A DNA stretch of 31,623 nt from Clostridia bacterium. Its GTDB lineage: Bacteria; Bacillota; Clostridia; Christensenellales; Aristaeellaceae. Positions 10,012-27,464 of the stretch are shown one piece after another. The position numbers and the translations under genes are program-made. The stretch's first letter is position 1; each line of letters starts with the position of its first letter. The notes beneath the pieces were generated by a model. It worked only from the letters and a program-made list of their open reading frames with translations, ran no database searches and was not told the DNA's origin. The DNA is taken from contig JAKSQG010000002.1 of assembly GCA_024404275.1 (NCBI GenBank), forward strand, positions 1-31,623, read 5' to 3'.

Positions 10012-10596
10012 TTACAGCGCGGCACATTCGGCGGCCACCGCGGCTTCGCAGCTCTGCATGGCGCGAAGCGTGCGGTCCAGCAGTTCCTCCAGCGTCCAGC
10101 CCAGGATCTCGGCACCCTTGCTGATGACCTCGCGGGAGCAGCCGGCGGCAAAACGCTTGTCCTTGAACTTCTTTTTGAGACTGGAAAGCTCCATGTCCGT
10201 GCAGCTGCCGGAGGGGCGCATGCGGGCGGCGGCACCGATGAGACCGGTCAGTTCATCCGCGGCAAACAGCACCTTTTCCATCGTGTGCTCGGGGGCAATG
10301 TCACAGCACAGTCCCCAGCCGTGGGAGCAGATGGCATGCACCATCTCGGCAGAGCAGTTGATCTCCGCCAGCAGCTCGGGAGCCTTCTGACAGTGCTGCT
10401 CGGGCCAGCCCTCAAAATCGATATCGTGGAGCAGTCCGCAAAGGCTCCAGAAACCGACATCCTCGCCAAAGCCCAGTTCGTTGGCATACCAGCGCATGCA
10501 GCCTTCCACCGTCAGGGCATGCTGCAGGTGGAAGGGTTCCTTGTTGTATTTTTTGAGCAGCTCCAGCGCCTGTTCGCGGGTGATGACGGTATTCAT
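10012..10596 (-). CDS. HD/HDIG-domain metal-dependent phosphohydrolase
   Basis: The 194-aa ORF contains an HD motif (LLHDIDF) and further His residues (HAICSH). A GGAGG RBS lies upstream. The ATG overlaps the ftsY stop by 1 nt. Stop codon is TAA. Confidence 0.8.
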   Translation of the reverse strand: MNTVITREQALELLKKYNKEPFHLQHALTVEGCMRWYANELGFGEDVGFWSLCGLLHDIDFEGWPEQHCQKAPELLAEINCSAEMVHAICSHGWGLCCDIAPEHTMEKVLFAADELTGLIGAAARMRPSGSCTDMELSSLKKKFKDKRFAAGCSREVISKGAEILGWTLEELLDRTLRAMQSCEAAVAAECAAL

Positions 10597-11522
10597 CAGT
10601 TGCTGTCCTCCGTTTTTTCATCCTCGCCGAAAAGTGCCCTGACGAACTGATTGGCGTCAAAGGCCTGCAGGTCGTCAATGCCCTCACCCACGCCGATGTA
10701 CCACACGGGCACGTTCAGCTCGCGGCGGATGGCAATGGCCACGCCGCCCTTGGCGGTGCCGTCCAGCTTGGTCAGGATCAGACCGTTGATTTCAACGGCT
10801 TCCTTGAACATCTTGGCCTGGTTGATGCCGTTCTGACCGGTGGTGGCGTCCAGAATCAGCATGCAGCGCACGGTGGCCTCGCTGAAGTCCTTATCGATGA
10901 TGCGGCGCATCTTCGACAGCTCGTCCATCAGGTTCTTTTTGTTGTGCAGGCGGCCGGCGGTGTCGATGATGAGCAGGTCGGCCTTGCGGGCCTTGGCAGC
11001 CTGCACGGCGTCATACACCACGGCGGCGGGGTCGCTGCCGGGCTGATGCTTGATGAGCGGCACATTGGCTCTTTCGGCCCACACCGCCAGCTGGTCATCG
11101 GCGGCGGCACGGAAAGTATCGCCCGCAGCCAGGATGACGCTGCGGCCGATCTATTGAAATCTCAGCGCCAGCTTGCCCACCGTGGTGGTCTTGCCCACGC
11201 CGTTGACGCCCACCACAAACATGACCATGGGCCAGTGCAGGGCGGGACGGGGAATGTTCATTTCCTCGGTCAGCAGCTCCTTGAACATTTCACGTGCCGT
11301 GGCGGCATCCTTGACCTTCTTGTCCTCGATGCGGCTGCGCAGCTCGTCAATGATCTCGGTGCTGGCTTTGACGCCCACGTCGCTGAGCAGCAGGATATCG
11401 GTCAGCTCCTCATAAAAATCATCATCGATGACACGGGTGTTTTCGACCAGCTCGTCCACCTTGTCGGAAATGTTGGATTTGGACTTGAACAGTCCCTGCT
11501 TCAGTTTTTGAAAAAAGCCCAT
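10596..11522 (-). CDS. ftsY: Signal recognition particle receptor FtsY containing one in-frame TAG
   Basis: ORFs 11151..11522 and 10596..11084 are in the same frame, and the sequence between them is open except for TAG 11151-11153. The GTPase motifs [10 protein letters not shown], DTAGR and TKLDG are all present. The joined length is 308 codons. AAGGAG RBS; stop codon is TGA. Confidence 0.93.
11151..11153 (-). other. In-frame TAG codon read as sense (ftsY)
   Basis: ...[48 protein letters not shown]... Confidence 0.85.
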
Positions 11523-11535
11523 ATCGTGTATCTCC

Positions 11536-14500
11536 TTACTGATAATTTTCCAGATTGACGCTTACCATGCGGCTGACGCCCTTTTCCTGCATGGCGACGC
11601 CGTACAGGGAGTCGCAGCGTTCCATGGTGCCCTTGCGGTGGGTGACGACCACAAACTGTGTGCCCTTGGCAAACTCCACCAGATAATCGGCAAAATAGCC
11701 GATGTTGGCTTCGTCCAGAGCCGCTTCGATCTCATCCAGAATGCAGAAGGGCGTGGGGCGCACCTTCAGCATGGCAAACAGGATGGCAATGGCGGTCAGC
11801 GCGCGCTCGCCGCCGGAGAGCAGGCTCAGCAGCTGCAGCTTCTTTCCCGGGGGCTGCGCCACCACCTCGATGCCGCAGGTCAGCGGCTCGTTCGGGTCCT
11901 CCAGCTTGAGCTCCGCCTGTCCGCCGCCAAAGAGGCGTACAAACGTTTCCTTGAAATAGCCGTTCAGACGGTCAAACTCGACCACAAACTGCTTTTCCAT
12001 CTGACCCATCAGCCGCTTGATGAGGCTGCGCAGGTCGGCTTCCGCCTTGGTCATGTCCTCCTGCTGGCGGGTCATGTCGTCAAAGCGTTCCTTGGTCTGG
12101 GCGTATTCTTCCACGGCACGCGTGTTGATGGGGCCCAGCGCGCGGATCTCCCTTTGCAGACCGGCGGCTTCCTTTTCACCCGCGGTCAGGGAGAAGGCAT
12201 CTGCCGGCAGGCGGTATTCCTCGGCGATGGCGAGCGTGGCCTCGTAGGTGTTCCACATGTGCTCGGTCAGCGTATTCAGCTCGTTTTCCGCACGGGCACT
12301 TTGCAGTTCGGTGCGGTGAAGCTGTTCGCCGTCGGCGTTGTATTTTTCGTGCAGGCGCTCGCTTTCGGCGACCAGCTCACGCTGCTGCGCCTGCTTTTCG
12401 GAACGTGTCTTTTCCAGTGCCGCGGTGTCCTCTTCCAGTTGACGCAGGGCGGCGTTCTGTTCGGCTGCCGCCTCGGTCAGCTGCCGCAGCAGCTCGGTGC
12501 CGTCCTCCAGCATCTTGCGCTGTTCGGTCAGCTTGTTTTCGGCTTCGGCACGCTCCTGACGCAGGTCGTTTTCCTCCTGCTCGCGGCGTTCCTTGTCACG
12601 GCGCAGGGTATCCAGCTTGTGCTGCAGGTCGGCCAGTTCCAGCCTTCTGCGCTCCAGACCGCCGCGCAGCAGATCGGCTTTTTCGCGGGCGGCACGCAGT
12701 TCATCCTGCAGCTGCTCGGTCTTCTGCTCCAGCGCTTCGCGGTCCACCGCAGCGCTTTCGGTGCCCTCGGTCAGGCTCTTGAGGTCAGCCCGCAGCTCTT
12801 CCAGGCTGTCCACCAGCTGTGTGATGGCAGCGCGCGTTTTGTTCAGCTGCTGCTCGGCGCTTTCCAACTCGGCAGAGGTGTTGAACACATGCTCCTGCTC
12901 ACGGGCAACGGCGATCTCCTGCTGATGCATGGCCTCGGCAGCCTCGGCACTCAGGCGGCGGGCTTCCCGCTGCTTGTCCTGCAGGCGCACGGCTTCTTCG
13001 GTCAGATGGTTGAACAGCTTTTCATCTTCCTGCAGCCGCGCCGTCAGTTCCTTGATCTCGCGTTCACGGGAAAGGAAGTTGCTGGTCTTGCCCTTCATGG
13101 AGCCGCCCGTCATGGAGCCGCCCGAGTGCATGACCTGACCGTCCAGCGTGACCAGACGGAAGGAATAGCGTCCCGCGCGCATGATGGGCAGGGCGGCATT
13201 CAGGTCGGATGCGATCACGGTGCGCCCCAGAAGGTTTTCCATCACGGGGCGGTATTTCTGATCATAGCCGATCAGCTCGCTCGCCACGCCCAGGCAGCCG
13301 GGCATCGACAGCACACGGCGCTCCTCGTTGTTCAAACTGTAGGGGCGCACGGTGTTGAGGGGCAAAAAGGTGGCACGGCCGCCGTCGGTGCGCTTCAGGT
13401 ATTCGATCAAACGCTTGGCGGTCACATCGGTGCCGGTAATGATGTTCTGCAGGGCGCCGCCCAGCACGGAATCAACGGCGGTCTCCAGTTCTTTGGGAAC
13501 CTCGATCAGCTGGGCGACCACGCCGCACACATCGGGGTCATTATGCCCGGCCTGCAGGGCCCGGCGGACGGCGTTGGCATAGCCCTCCATGTCACGGGCC
13601 ATTTCGCTCAACACGTGCAGGCGGCTGCGGGCGGACTGCATATCCAGGTTCAGCTTCTGCCTGCGGTCGTTCTGCGTGTTCATTTCATCGCCGAGTGAGC
13701 GGGCTTCGGCTTCCAGACGGCGGGCTTCGCCGCGGCAGGCGGTCAGGGTCTCGTCAGCCTCGCGCTGCAATTCCAGCGCGGCGTCATACTGCTGCCGCAG
13801 TTCCGCCTGACGGCTCACGCGTTCGCTTTCATTGGAACGCAGCTGCTCCAGATAGTTTTCCATCTGGGCGCACATCGTTTCCTTCTGGGTGCGGCTGTTG
13901 CGCACATCGCTCAGACGGTTGACAGCGGTCAAAATATCGGCTTTATGATCATTGAGCCGCTCCTCGGCTTCTTCGGCGGCTTGTTCGGCGGCGGCGGCCT
14001 CTTCCTCGGCGGCCGTCAGCGCTTCAGCGGCAGCGGTCAACTCCTCCTGCATCAGGGAGCCGCTGCCTTCGCCTTCCTCGGCAAGACGGCGCAGCACCTC
14101 AAGGCGGCTGTCCGCGGCGGCGACCTGCGCGGTCAGGCGTTCTTCCTCGGCCTTCAGCGCTTCACCGCGGGCTTCGGCTCGCTCCCGCGCCGTTTCGGTC
14201 TTATGGGCTTCCTCGGAGCTCAGACGGATGTCCGCCCGGTACTGACTGATATCATCCTCCATGCGGCTGATGATGTCGTCCAGCGCGGTACGCTCATTGC
14301 TGTTTTCATGCAGGCGCGCTTCGGTCTGCAGCTGCGTGTCGTGCAGCAGCTCCAGCGTTTCCTTCAGTTCCCTGATGCGCTCGGAAAGCTTATCCTGCCG
14401 CAGCAGGAAGATGTTCATTTCCAGCGTCTTGAGCCGCTCGGCCAGCTCCTGATATTTCAGCGCTGACTGCGCCTGCTCGTGCAGCGGCTAAATGCGGCTG

Positions 14501-15096
14501 CCCAGCTCCTGCAAAAGGTCGTTGACGCGGCTTAAATTGTCCAGCGTGCGGGACAGCTTGTGCTCGGCGTCTTCCTTGCGCACGCGGAAGGTGCTGATGC
14601 CGGCGGCCTCCTCAAAGACCTCGCGGCGGTCCTCACTCTTGTTGGAAAGAATATCGTCGATACGGCCCTGACCGATGTTGCTGTAGCCGTCCTTGCCGAT
14701 GCCGGTATCATAAAACAGCTCACGGATGTCCTTGAGCCTGCAGGCTTTTTTGTTGAGATAATATTCGCTGTCGCCGTTGCGGTACAACCGGCGGGTCACG
14801 GCCACCTCGGCAAAGTTGGTGCGCAGGGCGCCGTCCTCGTTTTCAAAGGTCAGCGTCACCTCGGCAAAGGTCAGCTTCTTGCGCTTCTCCGTGCCGTTGA
14901 AGATGATGTCCTGCATGCTGCCGCCGCGCAGCTCGCGGGGGTTCTGCTCGCCCAGCACCCATTTGACGGCGTCGCCGATGTTGCTTTTGCCCGAACCGTT
15001 GGGGCCCACAATGCCCGTGATGCCGCCGTTGAACAGCACTTCGGTGCGCTCGGCAAAGGACTTGAAGCCGTAGATCTCCAGTTTTTTCAGCTTCAT
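11536..15096 (-). CDS. smc: Chromosome segregation protein SMC containing one in-frame TAG
   Basis: ORFs 14488..15096 (head with Walker A GPNGSGKSN) and 11536..14418 (coiled coil, hinge, LSGGERAL signature, Walker B FCILDEIEAALD) are in the same frame. The intervening 14419-14487 is open, so the only interruption is TAG 14488-14490. The joined length is 1186 codons. Stop codon is TAA. Confidence 0.95.
14488..14490 (-). other. In-frame TAG codon read as sense (smc)
   Basis: ...RVNDLLQELGSRI-TAG-PLHEQAQSALKYQELAERLKTLEMNIFLL... Confidence 0.85.
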
Positions 15097-17220: not shown

Positions 17221-17880
17221 TCAATAAAACAGCAGGTTTTTCAACGCTTCCGGGGTGTTTACGAAGCAAGCGTCGGGGCAGTCCTGCCGTACCAGCTGGG
17301 CCAGCTCGTCCTCGTGTCCCCACATGGCCACGGCGATGTCGCAGCCCGCGGCACGGGCCATGGTGTAGCCGGGCTTCAGGTCATCGACCACCAGAATGTC
17401 CTTGAGCTCATAGCCGAAGCTGTCCATGATCCTGTGAATGGGCGCGGGGGAGGGCTTCTGGTTTTCGGCGCCCACCTCCCAGCCCAGCGTCAGGTCGGGC
17501 ACGGGCAGCCCTGCGGCTTCATAATCGCGCACAATGTAGCGCGCGTAGGAATGCGATACCACGCACACCCTGCCGCCCTCGGCCTTCTGACGGCGGATGA
17601 TCTCCGGCATGCCGTCATAAAAGGGCGGCACGCGGTCGGATACAAAACGGAACCAGTTTTCCTATTGAAACTTCATTTCCTCGTCCGTCATGTGCAATTG
17701 ACCGCGGCAGAATTCGTCAAAGGTCAGCTCATACCACTGCCGCTGATATACACTGCGGGGAATGTTCAGCCCCGGGCGCAGCTTGCTCATGGTGTCAAGA
17801 AAAGAAAGATAATGGATGGTGTCGGTGGAGCGCACCGCGGTGTCATCGTGGTCCAGCACCAGGCAGGGATAACGCGTCAT
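17221..17880 (-). CDS. HAD-superfamily hydrolase containing one in-frame TAG
   Basis: ORFs 17662..17880 (motif I LDHDDT) and 17221..17631 (KPSPAPI and DD motifs) are in the same frame. The gap is open except for TAG 17662-17664. The joined length is 219 codons. Stop codon is TGA. Confidence 0.85.
17662..17664 (-). other. In-frame TAG codon read as sense (HAD hydrolase)
   Basis: ...LHMTDEEMKFQ-TAG-ENWFRFVSDRVPPFYDGMPEII... Confidence 0.8.
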
Positions 17881-17902: not shown

Positions 17903-18020
17903 AATACCGTAAAGATCGGGCTGGCCCGCGGCACATCACAACAAATGCTTACTGCTGCTTCCTTCCGGACCTGACAGGGTTCACACCGTGCAATCGCACG
18001 GGGCCCGACCTTTACGGCAC
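17903..18020 (-). ncRNA. ffs: Small (4.5S-type) signal recognition particle RNA
   Basis: The minus-strand RNA contains the universal SRP helix-8 core CUGUCAGGUCC-GGAA-GGAAGCAGCAG. A closing helix pairs CCGUAAAGGUCGGGC with GCCCGAUCUUUACGG, followed by a UAUUUUUA tail. Confidence 0.88.
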
Positions 18021-18129: not shown

Positions 18130-18243
18130 ATGAATCTTCAGGGCGGGGTGCGATTCCCCACCGGCGGTATAGCCCGCGAGCCTCAAAAAGGTTGATCCGG
18201 TTGAATTCCGGAGCCGACAGTACAGTCTGGATGGAAGAAGTTT
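18130..18243 (+). promoter_or_regulatory. FMN riboswitch (RFN element) aptamer
   Basis: cttcagggcggggtgcgattccccaccggcggtatagcccgcgagcc...ccggttgaattccggagccgacagtacagtctggatggaagaag matches the conserved RFN core (AGGGCxGGGUG.AAUUCCC.ACCGGCGGU...GCCCGCGAGC...GCCGACAGU.AAGUCUGGAUG.GAGAAG). Confidence 0.92.
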
Positions 18244-18278
18244 CAAGCATTGCTTTTATTGCGCCGCATGGCGTGTCT

Positions 18279-18334: not shown

Positions 18335-19201
18335 GTGAAGAAAACAATGGCGCAAAGGCTGAAGCCCTATCTGTTTCTGATGCCCATGCTGGTGTTTGCC
18401 GCGGGTTTTGTGTACTATCCCTTCTTCAAGACCTTCCTGTACAGCTTTTCCCGCGTCAATGCCCGCGGCGATATCCTCGGCTTTGTGGGGCTGCAGAATT
18501 TCACCTATCTGTTCAGCCGCAGGGAATTTTCCGCCGCCCTTGGCAATACGCTCAGGCTGGCGGTCATCAACGTGCCCGTCACGGTCGCCCTGACCATGTT
18601 CCTGGCGCTGCTGTGCACCAGAAAAAGGGGCATCAGTGCAGCGGCGGAGACCATGTTTGCCCTGCCGATGGCCATTGCCATGTCGGCGGTGGCGCTCATC
18701 TTCAAGGTGCTGCTCAATCCCACGGTCGGCTATGTCAACCACCTGTTCGGTCTGACGGTCGGCTGGTACCGCGATAAAAACACGGCGCTTTCGGGCATCA
18801 TCCTGCTTACGGTGTGGATGGGCATCGGCTTCAATTTTCTGCTGTTCCTGTCCGCCTTCCGGGGGGTGCCCGATCAGCTGATCGAATCCGCCCGGCTGGA
18901 CGGAGCGGGTGGGGCGGCGGTGTTCTTTTTCATCCGTTTTCCGCTGATCACGCCCACGCTTCTGTATGTGGTATGCACCAACATGGTGCAGGCACTGATG
19001 ACCAGCGGACCCGTCATGATCCTGACGCAGGGCGGCCCCTCCCGCTCCACCACCACGCTCATCTATATGATGTACACCTCGGGCTACGGCTCATCGAACT
19101 ATTCTCTGGCAGCCTGTGTGGTGCTGGTCACCTTCGCCCTGACGCTGGTCTGCACACTGCTGGCCTTCGCGGCGGAAAGAAAGAAGGTGCATTACCAGTG
19201 A
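18335..19201 (+). CDS. Carbohydrate-type (CUT1) ABC transporter permease, MalF/UgpA-like
   Basis: ORF 18290..19201 is trimmed to GTG 18335, which lies 8 nt after GGAGGG (ATG 18347 is the alternative start). It has six TM segments and the EAA loop ESARLDGAG. Stop codon is TGA. Confidence 0.88.
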   Translation: MKKTMAQRLKPYLFLMPMLVFAAGFVYYPFFKTFLYSFSRVNARGDILGFVGLQNFTYLFSRREFSAALGNTLRLAVINVPVTVALTMFLALLCTRKRGISAAAETMFALPMAIAMSAVALIFKVLLNPTVGYVNHLFGLTVGWYRDKNTALSGIILLTVWMGIGFNFLLFLSAFRGVPDQLIESARLDGAGGAAVFFFIRFPLITPTLLYVVCTNMVQALMTSGPVMILTQGGPSRSTTTLIYMMYTSGYGSSNYSLAACVVLVTFALTLVCTLLAFAAERKKVHYQ

Positions 19202-20022
19202 AAAGACGAATGGTTCGCCTTCTGACCGATGCCCTGACGCTGGCGCTGGGCTTCGTGGTGGTTTTTCCCATCCTGTACGGATTGATGGGGGCATTCAAAT
19301 CCCCCGCGGAGTTTGCCGCCCAGCCGCCCACCGTATTGCCGCGTTCCTTCTCCTACACCGATAACTTCGCCTTCGTGCTGCGTACGGTGCCGCTGCTGCG
19401 TTACTTTTTCAACTCCCTGACGGTGGCGGTGCTCATCAGCACGGTGCGCCTGCTGGCGGCGCTGCTGGCGGCCTACGCGTTTGTGTACTTTGAATTCCCC
19501 GGCAGAGGGCTGCTGTTCATGCTGGTGCTTGCCACCATGATGCTGCCGGGCGACACCATGACGGTCACCAATTATCAGACGGTTTCGCGTCTTGGGCTGC
19601 TCAACACCTATCTTGGCATGAGCATCACCTCCTTCGTGGGCGCGTCGCAGATGTTCATGCTGCGGCAGAATTTCAAGACCATGCCCACGGCCATCCGTGA
19701 GGCCGCTATTCTGGATGGCTGCGGCGACCTTCGGTATCTGTTCTTCATCCTGACGCCCCTGTCCCGCCCCGTGCTGGTGACGCTGTTTGTGCAAAGCTTC
19801 ATTGGCGCGTGGAACACCTATCTATGGCCGCTGATGGTCACCAGCCATGATGAAATGCGCACCGTGCAGGTGGGCATCACCATGCTGACCTCGGTGGAGG
19901 GCACCAATTACGAAACGGTGCTGGCGGGCGTCATGCTCTCGCTCATCCCTGCGCTGTTTGTATTCCTTTTCCTGCGCCGCGGCATCTCCAAAGCCATGAC
20001 CGCGGGCTCCCTGGTGGGCTGA
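19198..20022 (+). CDS. Carbohydrate-type (CUT1) ABC transporter permease, MalG/UgpE-like
   Basis: The frame of ORF 18814..20022 is trimmed to GTG 19198, which overlaps the upstream TGA (GTGA); ATG 19210 is the alternative start. It carries the EAA loop EAAILDGCG. Stop codon is TGA. Confidence 0.85.
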   Translation: MKRRMVRLLTDALTLALGFVVVFPILYGLMGAFKSPAEFAAQPPTVLPRSFSYTDNFAFVLRTVPLLRYFFNSLTVAVLISTVRLLAALLAAYAFVYFEFPGRGLLFMLVLATMMLPGDTMTVTNYQTVSRLGLLNTYLGMSITSFVGASQMFMLRQNFKTMPTAIREAAILDGCGDLRYLFFILTPLSRPVLVTLFVQSFIGAWNTYLWPLMVTSHDEMRTVQVGITMLTSVEGTNYETVLAGVMLSLIPALFVFLFLRRGISKAMTAGSLVG

Positions 20023-20074
20023 TGCTGTTATCCCCGGGGCCGCGTCCCCGATAAAAATAAGGAGGAATCGTATC

Positions 20075-21352
20075 ATGAAAAAACTTTCCGCGCTGTTTGT
20101 GATCCTTACCCTTGTTTTCAGCCTTTCCGCCGGAGTGCTGGCGGAGACCCCTGTCACCCGCATCGTTTTCTGGCACTCCATGAATGAAGAGGCCGGCGTG
20201 CTGCTCGAAAAGTATGTGAAGGATTTCAATGACACCGTCGGCGCTCAGCTGGGCATCGAGGCCGAAGCCGTCTATCAGGGCTCCTACGCGCAGGCGACCC
20301 AGAAGCTCAACGCCATCCTGCAGGCGGGCAATTTTGCCGAGCTGCCCGATGTGATGCAGATGGACGCGACCGGCAAGGTGGCATATTTCACCTCCGGCAA
20401 GGCCTACACCGTGGACGACCTGCTGCGGGATAAGCCCGATACCGACGTTTCCGGTCTGCTGGGCGCGGCGATGGGCAACTGGAACTACACCGGCGTGCAG
20501 CTGGGTGTGCCCTTTGCCACCTCCACCACCGTGACCTATTATAACAAGACGGTGCTGGGCGAAGCCGCTCCCGAGACCTTTGCCGATATCAGCGCCGTGA
20601 CCGCTCCCGAAGGCACCGTGGTGTATGCCACCGTGCCCAACACCACCACCCTGGCCAACTGGCTGGGTCAGCTGGGCAGCTATGTGGTCAACAACAAGAA
20701 TGGCAGCGAAGGCAGTGCCGATGAGCTGGCCTGCATCGAAAACGGCGCTCTGGAGACCTTCCTGACCGAATGGAAGGCGCTGTATCAGAGCGGCGCGCTG
20801 CAGAACTACGCCGGCTCCACCGATGAGTTCGTGGCGGGCAAGCTGCTCATCATGACCTCTTCCTCTTCCAAGGTCACCTCCCTGCTGGCTTCCATCGGCG
20901 GCAGCTTTGAACTGGGCGTGTCCGTTTATCCCAAGGTGAACGCGGATGCCGCCTTCGGCGCCACCGTTTCCGGCAGCTGTCTGGTGATGTTTGATACCGG
21001 CAAGCAGGAAGCCGCCTGGGCGCTGGAAAACTACCTGACCTCTGCCGATGTGCAGGCGGACTTTGCCGTGGGCACCGGCTACATCCCCTCCAACAGCGGC
21101 GCGCTGGAGACCGAAGCCTGGAAGCAGCTGGTCGCCGCTCAGCCCGCTTATAACGTGGGTCTGGAGCAGCTGATGGCCACCCCCGCCGATATGCGCTCTG
21201 TCACCGTGGGCCCCTCCGCCGATTTCTACTATGCCATTCAGGATTGCGTCAGCGAGATGCTGGACAGCGACCTCACCCCTGAAGAGACCGTCGAAATGAT
21301 GGAGGATGAGCTGGGCGGACTGCTTACCCAGTACGCCATGGCCAATCCCTGA
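20075..21352 (+). CDS. Extracellular solute-binding protein (family 1) of the ABC transporter
   Basis: The ORF is 425 aa with an AAGGAGG RBS and an N-terminal signal peptide (MKKLSALFVILTLVFSLSAGVLA-ETP) that has no lipobox Cys. Stop codon is TGA. Confidence 0.88.
   Translation: MKKLSALFVILTLVFSLSAGVLAETPVTRIVFWHSMNEEAGVLLEKYVKDFNDTVGAQLGIEAEAVYQGSYAQATQKLNAILQAGNFAELPDVMQMDATGKVAYFTSGKAYTVDDLLRDKPDTDVSGLLGAAMGNWNYTGVQLGVPFATSTTVTYYNKTVLGEAAPETFADISAVTAPEGTVVYATVPNTTTLANWLGQLGSYVVNNKNGSEGSADELACIENGALETFLTEWKALYQSGALQNYAGSTDEFVAGKLLIMTSSSSKVTSLLASIGGSFELGVSVYPKVNADAAFGATVSGSCLVMFDTGKQEAAWALENYLTSADVQADFAVGTGYIPSNSGALETEAWKQLVAAQPAYNVGLEQLMATPADMRSVTVGPSADFYYAIQDCVSEMLDSDLTPEETVEMMEDELGGLLTQYAMANP

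Positions 21353-26198: not shown

Positions 26199-27460
<1,262 letters not shown>

Positions 27461-27464
<4 letters not shown>

Follow-up and report, generated by a model that had tools for sequence, protein, structure and literature searches.

Among certain uncultured gut Clostridia the amber codon, UAG (TAG in DNA), very probably is a sense codon for glutamate (Glu). The gene from which this reading departs is smc, found on the minus strand of the 'window', i.e., the whole stretch of DNA analysed here, which is 31,623 nucleotides of contig JAKSQG010000002.1 (assembly GCA_024404275.1). What is observed, there and in close relatives, is that TAG codons stand in frame within conserved and indeed essential genes, that these codons correspond to glutamate, that they turn over between genomes, that the genes carrying them are under purifying selection, and that all of this is restricted to one genus. 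At the level of sequence, this establishes UAG as a codon that is decoded efficiently at glutamate positions and is inherited as such across the genus. As the specific mechanism, a glutamate-charged tRNA(CUA) in combination with the loss or weakening of release factor 1 (RF1) is reasonably likely.

Relatives were sought by a scan of species-representative genomes, giving 16 related loci. One of these, L003 (JAZRWA010000059.1, GCA_045599485.1, SGB_3710), is syntenic with the window and 91.3% identical to it in DNA over 22.9 kb, that is, it represents a sister species. The others are 14 gut or rumen Clostridia genomes, with approximately 69% SMC identity, and a single Christensenellales genome, with 48%. 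By 'genus' we mean the window's species (GCA_024500545.1) together with the sister species (GCA_045599485.1). The sister contig was rebuilt to 47 kb, and same-genus contigs were taken as well from other samples (L022-L030, L035-L039, and L041).

The smc gene and its in-frame TAG

The smc gene occupies positions 11536..15096 (minus strand) as 1186 codons which end in TAA and which encode a Walker A head, coiled coil, hinge, signature motif, and Walker B. Reading from the ATG at 15096, a 202-codon open reading frame (ORF) runs to an in-frame TAG, codon 203, at 14490..14488. That TAG is followed by 23 codons (14487..14419; PLHEQAQSALKYQELAERLKTLE) and then, in the same frame, by a 960-codon ORF (14418..11536) which extends to the TAA. 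The original prediction had been that smc is split solely by this TAG, at a point which cannot be the true end of the protein, and both parts hold up. That is, there is one frame of 1186 codons with a single TAG, and the joined product, when aligned to TIGR02168 (SMC_prok_B), matches end to end across the TAG, with residues 2-1182 lying on profile positions 1-1181 of 1181 in a single stretch. The score is 1052 bits, versus a cut-off of 567, and it is as a joined, single polypeptide that the product belongs to the prokaryotic SMC equivalog.

Glutamate at the TAG position had been proposed from the Bacillus subtilis sequence. Structures of B. subtilis SMC (PDB 3zgx and 5xg3) can be aligned with the head of the present protein, and the B. 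subtilis sequence there, ...ELEGQVEPLKIQASIAKDY... / ...GQVEPLKIQ..., indeed places its E opposite the TAG. In the closest database relatives this column is E as well. Within the genus, L001 and L002 have TAG at codon 203 as the window does, and the codon is instead GAG in L022, a strain of the same species (97.7% identical), and in the sister species. With glutamate at the TAG, peptides spanning TAG sites would read, e.g., ...R/IEPLHEQAQSALK for SMC and ...K/VIEAIFENR for MurA, the latter being a second protein whose gene is so interrupted.

The 202-aa truncated SMC product is found, exactly, in three independent sources (NCBI GCA_024500545.1, Logan SRR17543910, and ENA ERZ27247093). The TAG itself is present in both of the assemblies that have readable DNA, which share 99.7% and 97.6% identity with the window and differ from it at other bases. 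A TAG which recurs in independent assemblies that differ elsewhere is not a read error. Reads with GAG rather than TAG had been put forward in advance as a sign that the claim of an interrupted yet intact gene was mistaken. Taken literally such a GAG does exist, in L022; what was to be concluded from it does not follow, since TAG and GAG are synonymous alleles that segregate, and since three assemblies confirm the TAG.

It is possible to view smc from a different perspective, that is, as encoding a head of 202 aa and, as a second polypeptide which begins at the ATG at 14418, the remaining 960 aa. There is an ATG 23 codons past the TAG, and standard annotation does indeed give two genes. The 23 intervening codons, which do continue the coiled coil as had been predicted, nevertheless are conserved as coding, since all 6 of their differences from the sister species are synonymous and 0 are non-synonymous. 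That species, furthermore, has a TAG in smc which lies 14 codons further on, at codon 217, where the window's species has GAG, and there is thus no fixed point at which the protein would be split. L022 along with all relatives possess one uninterrupted smc ORF. A two-piece SMC, lastly, would leave unexplained the TAGs of four other window genes, and we give it next to no credence.

The gene order in which smc is found, plsX-acpP-rnc-smc-ftsY, is conserved and is common to all related loci, with the rnc stop overlapping the smc start by 4 nt (15093-15096, minus strand). In the public table-11 annotation the smc head (14488-15096, minus strand) has been deposited as an 'AAA family ATPase' (MCQ2453004.1). 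Long antisense 'shadow' ORFs are many in the window, e.g., one of 686 aa opposite smc (11638-13698, plus strand). These are not genes but a by-product of 60% GC, and are a source of spurious protein-level matches between related loci.

TAG codons and glutamate across the genus

To count in-frame stops, every window frame with third-position GC (GC3) support was translated, and only those frames which were backed by both GC3 and homology were used. Among the resulting 25 window genes (9629 codons) there are 8 in-frame TAGs, 0 in-frame TAAs, and 0 in-frame TGAs. The TAGs are spread over 5 of the 25 genes: smc (1), ftsY (1), murA (3), a methyltransferase-like gene (2), and a HAD hydrolase gene (1). 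It is therefore one stop codon, and not the others, which stands in frame within many unrelated, conserved genes, and this is as true of the sites found across the genus as it is of the window. The original prediction concerned smc only, and the 7 further TAG sites in 4 other window genes point to a cause in the organism's code rather than to anything particular to smc. As codons, TAGs are nonetheless rare, constituting 0.08% of all codons and approximately 1% as compared with glutamate codons.

The ftsY gene (10596..11522, minus strand; 308 codons, ending in TGA) matches TIGR00064 with 356 bits (cut-off 261), in one stretch across its TAG. That TAG, codon 124 (11151..11153), falls between the P-loop (GVNGVGKTT) and DTFRAAA, with the surrounding sequence being ...GKLALRFQ, then the TAG, then IGRSVILAAGDTFRAAA. 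The codon is TAG in the sister species too, and the same column is E in 13/13 outgroup loci.

With murA (26199..27464, plus strand; 421 codons, ending in TGA) the match is to NF009470 at 566 bits (cut-off 552), as a single stretch over 5-419. Its first TAG, codon 327 (27177..27179; KSKVI-TAG-AIFENRF), is GAA in the sister species, and the column is E in 120/120 homologues as well as in a protein from the same species, P0141. The second, codon 360 (27276..27278; IIEGV-TAG-ALYGAPV), is found in a hypervariable column which is E in the nearest homologue (P0121) and P, S, D, or R elsewhere. The third, codon 414 (27438..27440; LRALGA-TAG-IWREELP), is TAG in the sister species as well; its column is E in the 4 nearest homologues and D, N, or E overall.

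The methyltransferase-like gene (4374..5279, minus strand; 301 codons, ending in TAA) encodes a SAM-methyltransferase or spermidine-synthase-like protein with weak matches to PRK03612 and PRK00811. Its TAGs are codons 12 (5244..5246) and 169 (4773..4775), and each is GAG in the sister species. The gene for the HAD-family hydrolase (17221..17880, minus strand; 219 codons, ending in TGA) has its TAG at codon 73 (17662..17664), and L023, L024, and the sister species share that TAG with the window. In distant homologues this column is variable, being mostly Tyr or Phe.

Codon-level comparison of the sister species and strains brings the number of coding TAG sites across the genus to 15, in 9 genes. 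At 9 of these 15 sites some other codon is found in another genome, and that other codon is GAG or GAA in 8 of the 9, with CCG, in a hypervariable column, accounting for the remaining one. The probability of at least 8 of 9 being glutamate is 8e-5 even with the most lenient null, which takes only the share of GAG among the sense codons that are one step from TAG. The TAG in some cases is found in the window's species, as with smc 203, methyltransferase 12 and 169, and murA 327, already described, along with murA 360, which is CCG in the sister species. In other cases it is the sister species which has the TAG, as with smc 217, methyltransferase 7 (GAA in the window's species), murA 271 (GAG in the window's species), and codon 385 of an aldo-keto reductase gene (GAG in L035). 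Codon 333 of a caspase/FlgD_ig-like gene is TAG in the window's species, on four contigs, and Glu in the sister species or another strain. The TAGs which are common to both species are ftsY 124, HAD 73, murA 414, and codon 259 of the caspase-like gene. A further TAG site, in chrA of the sister species, is one for which Gln was the initial expectation, and this was not borne out by the homologues, 112/120 of which have E there, versus Q in 8/120. The codon in short aligns with one amino acid, glutamate, at every informative site.

Outside of these conserved genes, L041 has, in an otherwise 60%-GC contig, a 40%-GC island (2229-3900, minus strand) encoding an LRR_5 (BspA-like) surface protein with 2 in-frame TAGs. 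Judging from this low-GC island, genes that probably were acquired horizontally carry sense TAGs as well.

UAG is otherwise the codon for pyrrolysine, which is decoded in some Firmicutes, and the program ARAGORN labels any tRNA(CUA) as Pyl. It is possible to suppose, therefore, that UAG here specifies pyrrolysine or some other non-standard residue via its own synthetase and tRNA pair. Positions that are Lys-like, or that are tied to no standard residue, would then be expected. Instead, the TAG columns are glutamate-specific, both within the genus (8/9) and among outgroups (120/120, 112/120, and 13/13), and the invariant glutamate of MurA fits a synonymous glutamate rather than a bulky lysine derivative. 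In addition, neither pyl genes nor methylamine methyltransferases are present among the called genes of the roughly 70 kb of genus DNA that was read (window, sister contig, L035, and L041). Pyrrolysine or its like is hence barely plausible. A variation upon this idea is that UAG specifies a glutamate-like non-standard residue, or a tRNA-modified glutamate, by way of a dedicated tRNA(CUA) and enzyme pair. This we consider to be very unlikely, while acknowledging that glutamate and a close analogue tolerated at glutamate positions are not told apart by sequence comparison.

Two other ideas account poorly for TAG as found in these genomes. The editing of mRNA from A to I would yield UGG, not GAG. 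A modified DNA base that is read as T would ignore reading frame, and it would not spare GAA and GGA.

Selection, phylogenetic extent, and termination

For all 19 of 19 orthologous gene pairs, window versus sister species, synonymous differences far outnumber non-synonymous ones. With smc there are 173 synonymous and 33 non-synonymous differences overall, which by part are 24 and 1 before the TAG, 6 and 0 in the 23 codons after it, and 143 and 32 over the remainder. Synonymous differences thus predominate on both sides of the TAG, from which it follows that smc DNA past the TAG is translated in the same frame as that which precedes it. The methyltransferase-like gene displays 72 synonymous and 29 non-synonymous differences.

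These patterns bear on the more mundane prospect that the interruptions are those of pseudogenes, or instead are sequencing or assembly errors in a metagenome-assembled genome. Broken SMC genes do exist in other assemblies, in two other Clostridia lineages: L019 (162-3352) has an smc broken by a deletion of about 120 codons plus a frameshift, and L042 (10001-13572) has one broken by an in-frame TAA along with a scaffold gap and frameshift. In the genus, by contrast, TAG is the only kind of interruption, with no TAA, no TGA, and no frameshift. Independent assemblies show the same sites, some of which are common to species that have diverged by 9%, purifying selection is strong downstream of the TAGs, and ftsY and murA are essential. 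Neither mixed disruptions nor relaxed selection, as damage would leave behind, is what is seen, and damage or error as an explanation is close to untenable.

Beyond the genus, internal TAGs are absent: there are none in plsX, acpP, rnc, smc, or ftsY among the 14 outgroup loci with approximately 69% SMC identity. Apparent in-frame stops in outgroup plsX and ftsY proved to be natural C-termini. One outgroup, L008, terminates smc with TAG exactly where its relatives use TAA, meaning that the outgroup keeps the standard meaning of this codon. In-frame TAG therefore is a phylogenetically coherent trait: it occurs in 2 species that are 91% identical, as well as in several strains, and outgroups lack it. 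SMCs truncated within long contigs (P0004-P0006 among them) were considered as evidence of a wider trait and turned out to be ordinary damage, not TAG.

The terminators of the 24 genes which end inside the window are TGA (15) and TAA (9), with TAG at 0, and none of the approximately 43 genus genes read end in TAG. Among the relatives, TAG terminates about 13 of 196 GC3-selected ORFs, or approximately 7%.

The most substantial challenge to UAG as solely a sense codon comes from partial suppression, that is, an amber suppressor tRNA acting alongside a working RF1, such that UAG would be both stop and glutamate, with mixed products as a result. The rarity of TAG is as expected were these codons still costly, and the missing TAG terminators are not statistically decisive. 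With murA, though, there are 3 TAGs in a single essential gene, and read-through at 30% would, by computation, leave just 2.7% of product at full length. Efficient decoding consequently is required, and the TAGs of ftsY and smc similarly demand near-complete read-through. TAG and GAG also swap freely across strains and species, as if neutrally, and the count of 0 in approximately 43 for genes ending in TAG is in the direction that full reassignment rather than partial suppression would predict. We view partial suppression as improbable.

UAG as glutamate has its own difficulties, and the following observations weigh against it. HAD 73, caspase-like 259, and murA 360 carry no information on which amino acid is inserted. 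Statistically, the lack of TAG terminators carries little weight (P(0 of 24) = 0.19; P(0 of ~43) = ~0.05, which is only weakly significant), as relatives themselves use TAG for just 7% or so of stops. Lastly, a tRNA(CUA) was not found in the roughly 70 kb of genus DNA read.

Two RNA elements are found near to the HAD gene. A gene for the small signal recognition particle (SRP) RNA (RF00169, 76 bits; 17911-18010, minus strand) adjoins it, and lies about 6 kb from ftsY, which is the SRP receptor gene. A flavin mononucleotide (FMN) riboswitch (Rfam RF00050, 117 bits; 18130-18246, plus strand) is located directly upstream of an ABC operon (18347-21352) consisting of permease, permease, and binding protein, which suggests that the operon encodes a flavin-regulated transporter.

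Decoding, known codes, and consequences

If UAG is glutamate, then every interrupted gene, smc, ftsY, and murA included, would yield one full-length protein, with glutamate at every TAG. TAG would be a rare synonym of GAG and GAA, one that is made and removed by single G-to-T changes between strains and species. The genome would be expected to encode a tRNA with a CUA anticodon that is charged with glutamate, and RF1 presumably would be either lost or no longer competing at UAG. In RF1-deficient Escherichia coli, near-cognate reading of UAG inserts mainly Gln, Tyr, Lys, or Trp. The glutamate-specific meaning seen here is unlike that, and so speaks in favour of a dedicated tRNA, which would most simply have arisen from tRNA-Glu(CUC), by C36 to A. 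Alternatively, it could be derived from tRNA-Gln(CUG), charged by a non-discriminating glutamyl-tRNA synthetase (GluRS) and left unamidated by GatCAB. Clostridia generally are not known to have glutaminyl-tRNA synthetase (GlnRS), and thus a suppressor derived from tRNA-Gln that is ignored by GatCAB also would deliver glutamate. The route to reassignment would probably be one of codon capture, for which the ancestor would have been well placed given that TAG is rare as a terminator in relatives. The reassignment looks to be young, with TAG at about 1% of glutamate codons and still turning over between strains.

The machinery itself was searched for using ARAGORN on the window, the 16 related loci, the 47-kb sister contig, L035-L039, and L041, along with Rfam on three. 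The sole tRNA cluster met with in the genus is a conserved one of 8 genes (Arg-TCT, His, Gln-TTG, Lys-TTT, Leu-TAG, Gly-GCC, Gly-TCC, and Lys-CTT), found at L034 7172-7901 (minus strand) and L035 4646-5373 (minus strand); it has neither a tRNA-Glu nor a CUA anticodon. A pattern scan of metagenomes, for tRNA-Glu-like genes with a CTA anticodon, returned only two unrelated small contigs. On one of the two, a 1.8-kb JGI metagenome contig, L031, two tRNA(CUA) genes stand in tandem, at 278-353 and 600-674 (plus strand). The second of these fits the search pattern, with its Glu-like variable loop and T-arm. L031 is possibly a phage, from outside of this lineage. The gene for RF1, prfA, does not lie within the roughly 70 kb of genus DNA that was read.

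Known bacterial stop reassignments all concern UGA, according to the Codetta screen (PMC8629427), and a 2024 preprint counts Bacteria as having three codes (10.1101/2024.09.30.615893). The 2026 KACI survey, which covers about 2.7 million assemblies, has no bacterial UAG reassignment in its list, and cautions that stop-codon inferences require supporting evidence (10.64898/2026.04.02.715157). Full-text literature searches for UAG or TAG to glutamate in bacteria, and for the accession of the assembly, turned up no relevant report. That this lineage is missing from code-inference surveys is probably owing to the rarity of the codon.

In table 4 UGA has become Trp (Mycoplasmatales and others), and in table 25 it has become Gly (Gracilibacteria and Absconditabacteria). 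Both are likewise lineage-wide, chromosomal changes from stop to sense, with in-frame stops in conserved genes of one clade only. The differences are that here the codon is UAG rather than UGA, the release factor concerned would be RF1 rather than RF2, the amino acid is Glu, and the genome is GC-rich (60%) rather than AT-rich or reduced. Code 15, in which gut phages such as the crAss-like and Lak phages read UAG as Gln, involves the same codon in the same animal-gut habitat, and dependence on a suppressor tRNA(CUA) is to be expected with both. Those phages, however, recode mainly late genes, and with Gln, whereas here it is chromosomal housekeeping genes (smc, ftsY, and murA) that are affected, and the aligned residue is Glu. 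A phage using code 15 is ruled out as a source of the window, that is, by its chromosomal, housekeeping neighbourhood, plsX-acpP-rnc-smc-ftsY along with leuS and murA, and by Glu rather than Gln.

The only established code in which UAG is glutamate is the nuclear code of peritrich ciliates (table 30), which is eukaryotic and in which UAA is reassigned to Glu as well. Ciliate contamination is ruled out by TAA being a frequent terminator here (9/24) and by the bacterial operons. The archaeal 'Pyl code' (10.1101/2024.09.30.615893) also is prokaryotic, with non-terminating TAGs inside of ordinary genes. That code, though, depends on pyl machinery. Here the TAGs stand instead at glutamate positions, and the roughly 70 kb read yielded no pyl genes. 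The same mechanistic model, i.e., a tRNA(CUA) that is free of RF1 competition, applies to amber suppression in the laboratory (supE-type suppressors) and to E. coli strains that lack RF1 (C321.deltaA). Those systems are engineered or strain-level, versus a natural, cross-species occurrence here, with new TAGs accumulating in essential genes.

A practical consequence is that table-11 annotation fragments essential genes of these genomes in public records. Public gene calls split the recoded ftsY into pieces of 123 and 156 aa, the HAD gene into 72 and 140 aa, and, in the sister genome, murA into 270 and 142 aa.

If UAG indeed is glutamate, then no other bacterial lineage would be known to have reassigned the amber codon before this one, and no other prokaryote to have read UAG as glutamate, giving a fourth bacterial code beside tables 11, 4, and 25. 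It would have arisen in a GC-rich, apparently free-living gut anaerobe rather than in a reduced, AT-rich genome. Were a glutamate-like non-standard residue instead the correct answer, then the amino-acid repertoire itself would have been enlarged by natural means, which is more than the gain of a synonym. UAG as glutamate predicts that there is a natural tRNA(CUA) which accepts glutamate and that the bacterium manages with no RF1 function at UAG, and codon capture in progress would be directly observable. It would bear as well on the evolution of the code, on genetic-code engineering, and on why phages of the same habitat recode TAG.

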